Assembly: GCF_003334335.1 (NCBI RefSeq)
Contig: NZ_QOWQ01000166.1
Direction: 5' to 3' (one strand)
DNA: 632 nucleotides
From: Escherichia coli
GTDB taxonomy: Bacteria; Pseudomonadota; Gammaproteobacteria; Enterobacterales; Enterobacteriaceae
The position numbers and the translations under genes were made by a program. Every line of letters begins with the position of its first letter. Positions within the stretch are counted from its first letter, which is position 1. Below the pieces are notes generated by a model that worked only from the letters and a program-made list of their open reading frames with translations, had not been told where the DNA came from and ran no database searches. Below, piece by piece: positions 1 to 632 of the stretch.

Positions 1-62
1 CCGCAGGCGCTTACGACCAGCGGCAACGTCAGCGCGCAGAGTTTCATTTTCAGCTCTCGCAT
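1..62 (-). CDS. Rz1: o-spanin outer-membrane lipoprotein, lambda Rz1-like, embedded in the +1 frame of Rz (partial)
   Basis: Minus-strand ATG at 62..60, with a second in-frame ATG at 47..45, in the +1 frame relative to Rz. Translation to the window edge: [20 protein letters not shown]. This is a lipoprotein-type signal peptide with a lipobox-like VVSAC, the Cys codon at 5..3. It closely parallels the lambda Rz1 N-terminus as I recall it (MLKLKMMLCVMMLPLVVVGC). An embedded out-of-frame o-spanin inside the i-spanin gene is the established lambda arrangement. Confidence 0.8.
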
Positions 63-282
63 CGGCTAATTCCCTCGAGTATCTGGCATCAAGTGCAGCA
101 ACATCACGCTGGCGCTGCTGCATATCAGTAATGGTTGCATTTGCCTGCTCCAGCTCACTGACTTTTTTATCGCGCTGCTCTTTGTAGGTTATGGCGTTAT
201 CACGGTAATGATTCAGCCCCAGACTAAGCACACCACAGGCTACCAGCATGACAATAATCACCACACACAGAACACGGTTCAT
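1..282 (-). CDS. Rz: i-spanin, lambda Rz-like (N-terminal 94 codons; 3' end lies beyond the window start)
   Basis: Minus-strand ORF with ATG at 282..280 (complement), open to position 1. Hand translation: [94 protein letters not shown]. It has a short N-terminus, one hydrophobic signal-anchor helix, then a charged, Ala/Arg/Glu/Gln-rich segment typical of the periplasmic coiled-coil of i-spanins. Several blocks match lambda Rz as I recall it ([37 protein letters not shown]). Not in the ORF track, presumably because it is truncated by the window edge. Confidence 0.9.
71..76 (-). promoter_or_regulatory. Shine-Dalgarno-like element (GAGGGA) upstream of the Rz1 start
   Basis: On the minus strand GAGGGA lies 8 nt upstream of the Rz1 ATG at 62..60. 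It sits inside the Rz reading frame, as expected for an embedded gene. Assigned on sequence complementarity and spacing only. Confidence 0.35.
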
Positions 283-283
283 A

Positions 284-370
284 TCACCACCAACGAATTG
301 CCCAGACCAGAACAGCAATGGCCACAATACGAATGGCAAATGCCATTGCCCGAATAAGTTCAGCACTCAT
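284..370 (-). CDS. small single-helix hydrophobic peptide, 28 aa, function unknown (paralog C of a tandem triplet)
   Basis: Minus-strand ATG at 370..368, TGA at 286..284. Translation: [28 protein letters not shown]. Short polar N-terminus, then a hydrophobic helix with an Arg/Trp C-terminal end. It aligns without gaps to the neighbouring ORF at 382..498 (RAMAFAI versus RALAFAI). The stop is 1 nt from the Rz ATG. Below the ORF-track length cutoff. The upstream SD is weak (AAAAAG), so expression may depend on coupling. Confidence 0.5.
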
Positions 371-381
371 CTTTTTAAAGT

Positions 382-498
382 TCACGATTTCAGCGCAATG
401 ACCAGTTTTGCCAGCCCATACAGCATCGGAGACACAGCAATACCAACAGCCACCCACTTAATAGCAAAAGCCAGCGCTCTGCTGATGTCATCAGTCAC
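382..498 (-). CDS. small single-helix hydrophobic peptide, about 38 aa, function unknown (paralog B of a tandem triplet)
   Basis: Same frame as the ORF-track entry 382..597, but I place the start at GTG 498..496; an alternative GTG at 504..502 overlaps the upstream stop as GTGA. Stop TGA at 384..382. Translation from GTG498: (M)TDDISRALAFAIKWVAVGIAVSPMLYGLAKLVIALKS. The portion of the track ORF upstream of 504 (CDCRYFIFTNAGCSFSVPRLGDVVF...) is not helix-like and is antisense-frame overlap with the better-supported ORF at 501..632. The N-terminus MTDDIS and core RALAFAIKWVAV match paralog C, and VGIAVSPML matches paralog A. Confidence 0.5.
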   Translation of the reverse strand: MTDDISRALAFAIKWVAVGIAVSPMLYGLAKLVIALKS

Positions 499-500
499 TG

Positions 501-632
501 TCACCCCAGCAGCCCCGACGAAGACAACATCACCCAGGCGAGGGACAGAAAAAGAGCAACCAGCATTAGTGAAAATGAAATACCGACAATCACACACAGG
601 ACCTTTGCCGGCGTTATGAGTTTGTCTGACAT
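501..632 (-). CDS. small single-helix hydrophobic peptide, 43 aa if the ATG at the window edge is the true start, function unknown (paralog A of a tandem triplet)
   Basis: Minus-strand ATG at 632..630, exactly at the window edge, so upstream extension cannot be excluded. Stop TGA at 503..501. Translation: MSDKLITPAKVLCVIVGISFSLMLVALFLSLAWVMLSSSGLLG. Polar N-terminus with two Lys, then a hydrophobic stretch of about 26 residues. The N-terminus MSDKLI parallels MTDDIS and MSAELI in the next two ORFs, which supports this ATG as a genuine start. Core VGISFSLML matches VGIAVSPML in paralog B. Not in the ORF track. Confidence 0.45.
   Translation of the reverse strand: MSDKLITPAKVLCVIVGISFSLMLVALFLSLAWVMLSSSGLLG

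Follow-up and report, generated by a model that had tools for sequence, protein, structure and literature searches.

In the lysis region of a lambdoid Stx-type prophage of Escherichia coli, the ribosome-binding site of the Rz gene is probably written into the very end of the preceding small gene, ORF C. The element uGGuGGUGAu, made up of the last two Trp codons of ORF C, its stop codon and a single-base spacer, would be part of the Rz module and would capture 30S subunits on the late transcript; ribosomes terminating on ORF C could contribute to Rz initiation but would not be required for it. The first-pass annotation had proposed that the peptide genes and the spanin genes are translationally coupled. 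Coupling of Rz to ORF C is possible, but it is probably not obligatory.

The window (the whole stretch of DNA analysed, 632 nt) represents the reverse strand of part of this lysis region. It is 100% identical to positions 24331-24962 of Escherichia phage PhiR5_1 (PV340545.1) and to segments of several E. coli chromosomes. At least 80% of the whole window is carried by 615 of 5,426 complete E. coli genomes, a 200-nt probe spanning the ORF C/Rz junction is covered to at least 80% in 934 genomes, and the uncharacterised peptide genes are found in ~17% of complete E. coli genomes. The gene order in PhiR5_1 and RefSeq is holin S, lysozyme R, a KilAC-type antirepressor (ant), ORF0-A-B-C, Rz with embedded Rz1, and terminase; the holin upstream of the array belongs to class II. 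Successive distances in PhiR5_1 are -4 nt for ant/0 (ATGA), +2 nt for 0/A, -4 or +2 nt for A/B (GTGA), +11 nt for B/C and +1 nt for C/Rz. The features of the window are as follows.

ORF A, 632..501, minus strand: 43-aa single-helix peptide, taken from the ORF list (phrog_4906, E-value: 4.5e-21)
ORF B, 504..382, minus strand: hydrophobic peptide of ~40 aa with a GTG start at 504..502 (phrog_1115, E-value: 6e-25)
B-C spacer (actttaaaaag), 371..381, minus strand: 11 nt, A/U-rich, without a Shine-Dalgarno (SD) element (-4.0 kcal/mol)
ORF C, 370..284, minus strand: 28-aa single-helix hydrophobic peptide, WP_032140280.1 in RefSeq (phrog_4493, E-value: 3.8e-6)
Junction element TGG TGG TGA t, 292..283, minus strand: last two Trp codons of ORF C, stop codon and 1-nt spacer
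Rz i-spanin, codons 1-94, 282..1, minus strand: phrog_13; runs off the window (155 codons in PhiR5_1)
Start of the Rz1 o-spanin, 62..1, minus strand: ATG at 62 or 47, lipobox Cys codon at 5..3, in the +1 frame of Rz

Antisense to ORFs A-C and the beginning of Rz there is a 123-codon ATG ORF (window 248-619, plus strand). None of the matching records annotates it, and most likely it is a shadow ORF arising from the G/T-rich peptide genes.

Comparisons with phage records and protein families show the small ORFs upstream of Rz to be, as judged by homology, real genes that are often left unannotated. By tblastn, ORF A is matched over its full length in 276 phage records (63-100% identity), mostly of Stx-converting phages; in most of the records it is unannotated. 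It ends in GGGGTGA, an SD-like element for the next cistron. ORF B matches phrog_1115, phrog_3246 and phrog_4493, and ORF C matches phrog_4493 and phrog_3246. The first-pass annotation had called ORF C a paralog; this holds with respect to ORF B (BLASTP E-value: 2e-4), whereas ORFs A and C give no alignment. The peptides have no match in NCBIfam or PADLOC, or in Pfam (ORFs A and B scanned; ORF C too short), and their PHROG matches are to families of unknown function only. A full-text literature search with the peptide sequences found no paper, a literature search on genes between R and Rz found nothing relevant, and a survey of Stx-phage lysis cassettes (PMC8136144) leaves the peptides unmentioned.

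The annotation of these genes differs from record to record. In 933W (L008, AF125520, 1362-1496) and Min27, ORF A lies unannotated between ant and Rz. ORF0, a 31-aa ORF matching phrog_6632 (L001, 3903-3998), is located just outside the window, upstream of ORF A, and is annotated in the PhiR5_1 record and not in RefSeq. Its start overlaps the antirepressor stop (ATGA), it ends 2 nt before ORF A, and its last codons, AAGGGG, are the ORF A SD. The start of ORF B is ambiguous: the GTG at 504..502 shares bases with the stop of ORF A (GTGA), a second GTG, 6 nt downstream at 498, has a stronger SD (-10.4 kcal/mol), and RefSeq places the start 33 nt further upstream, where it reads as CTG (L002, 4096-4251), giving three starts in three annotations.

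The identity of the spanin genes is clear from their matches. Rz matches phrog_13 ('Rz-like spanin', E-value: 2e-76), with residues 1-155 falling on profile positions 1-154, and is annotated as Rz or as a lysis protein in PV340545.1 and RefSeq. It can be classified as an i-spanin, being a lambda Rz homologue with a hydrophobic N-terminus. The full 61-aa Rz1 ORF is embedded in Rz in the +1 frame (phrog_3198, E-value: 1.3e-30) and has the lipobox ..VVSAC. The two genes are found at the distal end of the holin-endolysin cassette, with the holin and lysozyme upstream and the terminase downstream. An N-terminally extended Rz starting at a GTG 28 codons upstream was considered and rejected, the open stretch not being conserved.

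On the minus strand the junction reads TGG TGG TGA t ATG (window 292..280), just as the first-pass annotation had read it, and the frames given for ORF C (370..284) and Rz (282..1) both translate as claimed, with a stop-start gap of exactly 1 nt (window 283). The interval assigned to the junction, 280-291, was nearly right, but at 291 it stops one base short of the T that opens the first Trp codon (292). The SD-like element described at the end of ORF C is present and strong, but the distance of 4-9 nt proposed for it needs correcting, GGTGGTGA (291..284) being located 2-9 nt before the ATG. Both genes are on the same (minus) strand, and their stop-start distance of +1 nt falls within the range of -8..+10 nt for which termination-reinitiation has been reported (PMC10666635). 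The spacings throughout ant-ORF0-A-B-C-Rz are inside this range as well, except for the +11-nt B-C spacer, which is just outside. There is nothing unusual in the 1-nt gap alone, since spacings between -8 and +6 nt are found in 24% of the co-directional gene pairs of E. coli (PMC10666635).

SD strength was assessed by hybridising the 20 nt upstream of each gene start to the 16S tail 5'-GAUCACCUCCUUA-3'. The Rz leader, uGGuGGUGAu, forms a duplex of -11.5 kcal/mol with the 16S rRNA 3' tail, consisting of six contiguous pairs (GGUGAU:AUCACC) and two G-C pairs across one U.U mismatch. Among the 16 gene starts tested in the locus this duplex is the strongest, and among all 20-nt windows across the 8.6 kb it ranks in the top 1.7%. 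Of the 11,163 codon-codon-stop endings possible in this context, just 0.46% pair equally well, and the SD-likeness of the ORF C end exceeds chance. The TGA stop is itself part of the SD, because the same Trp-Trp tail followed by TAA or TAG gives only -8.2 kcal/mol (TGA being worth 3.3 kcal/mol more). The SD-like element for Rz is contained in the last ~15 nt of ORF C, a position that counts towards coupling. It is also very close to the start codon, the G that pairs with C1535 being separated from the Rz AUG by 4 nt. Chen and colleagues are said to have placed the optimum of aligned SD spacing near 5 nt in 1994; the value for Rz is ~3 nt. Such a very short SD-AUG spacing would favour reinitiation over fresh initiation.

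Conservation of the junction was followed across 100 related loci, 20 of them from annotated phage and E. coli records and 80 from IMG/VR contigs encoding an Rz of at least 90% identity. The block TGGTGGTGA-N-ATGAACCG, where N = T or A, is unchanged in 88 of the 100. These 88 loci fall into 15 distinct 60-nt haplotypes, which stem from a few lineages, and the nine-base block and the ATG never vary among them. Variation is found around the block, in the Ile codon (ATT/ATC/ATA), the Arg codon (CGT/CGC), the spacer (T/A) and Rz codons 3-4. The upstream ORF that ends in the block is of three kinds, all terminating in IRWW*: ORF C; a B/C hybrid, common in O157:H7, that joins a B-like N-terminus to the C helix; and an ORF0-like peptide (..FDFSKLIREIR.MAEKLSTWKFILIWLVFVIMASGYFIGQIRWW at the junction). 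The tail of such a peptide is set by its downstream neighbour, because ORF0 ends in ..AIKG* if ORF A is next and in ..QIRWW* if Rz is next. Alignments of the window with other Stx phages set in 22, 16 or only 3 nt ahead of the Rz ATG.

The junction is also intact in several loci with a damaged upstream ORF, these being prophage sequences which may or may not be viable. The upstream ORF of L013 (1400-1517) has two in-frame stops, L003 (2130-2315) has a 13-codon deletion in ORF C and a frameshift in ORF B, five loci (the L067 group, including L067, L069, L075 and L094) have a stop ahead of VMAEKL, and the upstream ORF of L082 is truncated; the nonsense codons fall in the ORF0-like gene, and in all of these loci the Rz junction is kept. 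The occurrence of the block with three kinds of upstream ORF, several of them broken, indicates that the motif belongs to the Rz module as its probable ribosome-binding site. In Rz alleles without the TGGTGGTGA block, ORF A provides a comparable SD, likewise G-rich and including the stop: GGGGTGA (tail ..GLVG*), followed for example by aagagagATG (933W and relatives), gggggatATG or gcATAAACCGAATG. Leaders of this type pair at -10.8 to -11.4 kcal/mol.

One Rz allele (L004, L006 and L011) has ATA as its first codon (ATA AAC CGA ATG), so the Rz start must be the ATG three codons on or, as annotated in one record, a site still further downstream. GGGGTGA is located 11 nt upstream of the later ATG in these loci.

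The interval between R and Rz takes 13 arrangements in the 100 loci. It contains between one and four of the small single-helix peptide genes, of types 0, A, B, C or B/C hybrid, and may or may not include the antirepressor. The commonest arrangements are R-0-Rz (31 loci) and R-0-A-B-C-Rz (30 loci, and 5 more with ant or without R in range); others are R-C-Rz (17), R-ant-A-Rz (5, including 933W) and R-B-A-Rz (4). This variable mosaic contradicts that part of the earlier proposal by which the peptide genes would not be independent insertions. From the number of arrangements, the peptide genes can be regarded as evolutionarily interchangeable modules. The modules are nonetheless closely joined in every case, and each module's G-rich end would act as the SD for the next gene. 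The junction appears to mark a recombination boundary in Stx-phage lysis cassettes.

Some haplotypes (L020/L064/L065/L073 and L096) are mixed, with either a C-type upstream ORF and an 'a + CGC' Rz or an ORF0-type upstream ORF and CGT. These suggest recombination crossovers inside or right beside the TGGTGGTGA-N-ATGAACCG block.

A consensus scan of the array found no sigma-70-like promoter, and no convincing terminator was found between ORF C and Rz. The terminator-like hits in ORF C are 5-bp stems without a U-tract, and such hits occur at chance frequency (5 found vs 3.5 +/- 1.8 expected). The 1-nt gap leaves no room between the two genes for a promoter or terminator. Rfam gave no RNA element in the window at E <= 1. 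An arrangement of the moron type (an autonomous promoter-gene-terminator insertion) was rejected, there being no promoter upstream of ORF 0, A, B or C and no terminator before Rz. The tight packing of ant-0-A-B-C-Rz makes a single transcript a reasonable expectation, and it is plausible that the peptide genes and Rz share one late transcript.

Relatives without ant have a strong terminator-like hairpin (15 pairs and a T-run) between R and the array (L020, 749-781; L007, ~1815-1850). With such a hairpin after R, the spanin genes would lie beyond a terminator in the late operon and would depend on Q antitermination. In lambdoid late operons, Q-modified RNA polymerase reads through terminators of this kind.

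The model favoured here for Rz translation has the following steps. The peptide genes and Rz would be carried on one late transcript. On this transcript, uGGuGGUGAu would pair with 5'-AUCACC(U)CC-3' in the 16S rRNA 3' tail. The Rz AUG would then be loaded by the 30S subunit held at the SD, either a fresh one or, by termination-reinitiation, one that has just finished ORF C at the UGA a single base before. The last ~16-22 nt before the ATG would travel with Rz, such that any upstream ORF reading into them gains the ..IRWW* tail. We infer that co-transcription, use of the SD and a sharing of initiation between reinitiating and fresh subunits are each plausible.

A stricter form of coupling, in which Rz is made only or mainly by ribosomes finishing ORF C, via reinitiation or structure melting, is unlikely; it would have the peptide and the spanin made in fixed proportion. 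The SD ends directly at the AUG, as this reading would have it, and a small membrane-peptide ORF (type 0, A or C) is found directly upstream of this Rz type in nearly all 100 loci. The Rz start region is moreover predicted to be mostly base-paired and the least accessible in the locus (P(unpaired) 0.26, vs 0.34-0.68 for the others, with the ORF C start region the most accessible at 0.68), and the minimum-free-energy fold has the Rz SD and AUG paired with ORF C codons. Low accessibility would favour dependence on upstream translation. However, the predicted occlusion is no greater than that obtained with shuffled flanks, 27% of which are equally closed, the z-score of the whole region is only -0.52, and variants that share this junction differ in accessibility, with values between 0.17 and 0.45. 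A hairpin hiding the Rz start and opened by translation of ORF C was rejected on these three counts. ORF C is also without an SD of its own (-4.0 kcal/mol) and may deliver few ribosomes to its stop codon. Finally, the strong SD persists in loci whose upstream ORF is interrupted or cut short (L013, L003, the L067 group and L082), which argues against obligatory coupling.

The remaining alternatives are less probable still. It is doubtful that Trp-Trp-stop is kept for the sake of the peptide, for example as an aromatic membrane-interface anchor (..WAIRWW), with the likeness to an SD incidental and Rz starting by other means. The amino acids IRWW are fixed in all 15 haplotypes while the Ile and Arg codons vary synonymously, as expected of such a constraint. 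For TGGTGG itself, constraint on the RNA and on the peptide are inseparable because Trp has one codon only, and the invariant TGA is the sole part of the block that would speak for constraint at the RNA level. The stop codon never departs from TGA, which alone among the three stops lengthens the 16S pairing, and the same tail is found on three unrelated or partly related peptides and is kept where the ORF is broken; Rz alleles with a different tail (..GLVG*) again spell a G-rich SD. It is very improbable that ORF C is not a gene, the stretch being an untranslated Rz leader without a functional stop-start junction. ORF C has 28 codons, no SD and no match in NCBIfam, PADLOC or Pfam (being too short for the Pfam scan), only six phage records match it by tblastn, and it is shortened in L003. 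It is nevertheless annotated in RefSeq, matches phrog_4493 and has a paralog in ORF B; the 11 nt that differ between L001 and L014 are distributed 3/1/7 by codon position, with all replacements conservative and the frame kept, and the B/C hybrid keeps the same frame and helix. Recoding, either by a prfB-like +1 frameshift at UGG UGA or by UGA read-through, such that ORF C is fused to Rz or extended, is scarcely credible and was rejected. In its favour, Rz is offset by +1 from the ORF C frame, an SD-like run precedes the in-frame UGA, and in L001 the reading frame of Rz stays open over the 28 codons before its start, but ~26% of 28-codon stretches are open by chance, and the upstream open frame spans 28, 24, 15 or 10 codons of unrelated sequence depending on the junction class. 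There is no slippery codon, the tRNA-Trp (anticodon CCA) pairing at 1/3 positions on the +1 codon GGU, and the read-through frame ends after 19 codons inside Rz. Against recoding count both the inability of tRNA-Trp to re-pair in the +1 frame and the lack of conservation of the fusion frame.

If Rz does use uGGuGGUGAu as its ribosome-binding site, little is at stake in the junction itself, which is one more case in phage late operons of such a site being contained in the last codons of the gene before it. The junction does fix the true start of Rz, and the IRWW of three peptides would be dictated by the Rz leader, a regulatory sequence shaping the tail of its neighbour. The uncharacterised peptide genes are the more interesting question, because Stx-phage lysis controls toxin release. 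Tightly spaced E. coli gene pairs are 4.5-fold enriched for subunits of one complex (PMC10666635). It is conceivable, though improbable, that the small peptides act in the inner membrane as partners or timers, either for the spanin or for the pinholin/SAR-endolysin pair, with the junction giving a fixed proportion to Rz; if true, they would constitute a new class of lysis-cassette component in Stx phages.

Set against known systems, the junction appears to be an ordinary tight boundary, an undescribed example of a well-known kind that has the structural features of the reinitiation class. At the prfB (RF2) site, too, an SD-like element precedes an in-frame UGA, and the gene that follows is in the +1 frame, but the window site has no slippery P-site codon and no conserved fusion frame, and its SD overlaps the stop, whereas that of prfB is 3 nt before the shift codon. 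E. coli termination-reinitiation pairs are likewise co-directional, are spaced at -8..+10 nt and have an SD in the upstream 3' end (PMC6728339, PMC10666635). Their commonest distances are -4 and -1 nt, as opposed to +1 nt here, and for these pairs the dependence of the downstream gene on upstream translation is a measured property (Huber et al. 2019, PMC6728339; PMC10666635), at the window junction a possible one. In lambda R/Rz, Rz likewise has an embedded Rz1, stands at the end of the lysis cassette, starts against the preceding stop and has its SD inside the last codons of the preceding gene. The upstream gene in lambda is however the endolysin gene R, the overlap is -4 nt (ATGA) and the SD, GAGAGA, is weaker; in the related lambdoid locus L012, the Rz duplex is -6.9 kcal/mol compared to -11.5 kcal/mol at the window junction. 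The ant-ORF A-Rz arrangement of 933W (GGGGTGA aagagag ATG), also from an Stx phage, similarly places a single-helix peptide gene before Rz, and the G-rich last codons of ORF A and its TGA pair with 16S rRNA at -11.4 kcal/mol. It differs in the peptide, which is ORF A (..GLVG*), and in the spacer, which is 7 nt in 933W and 1 nt in the window.
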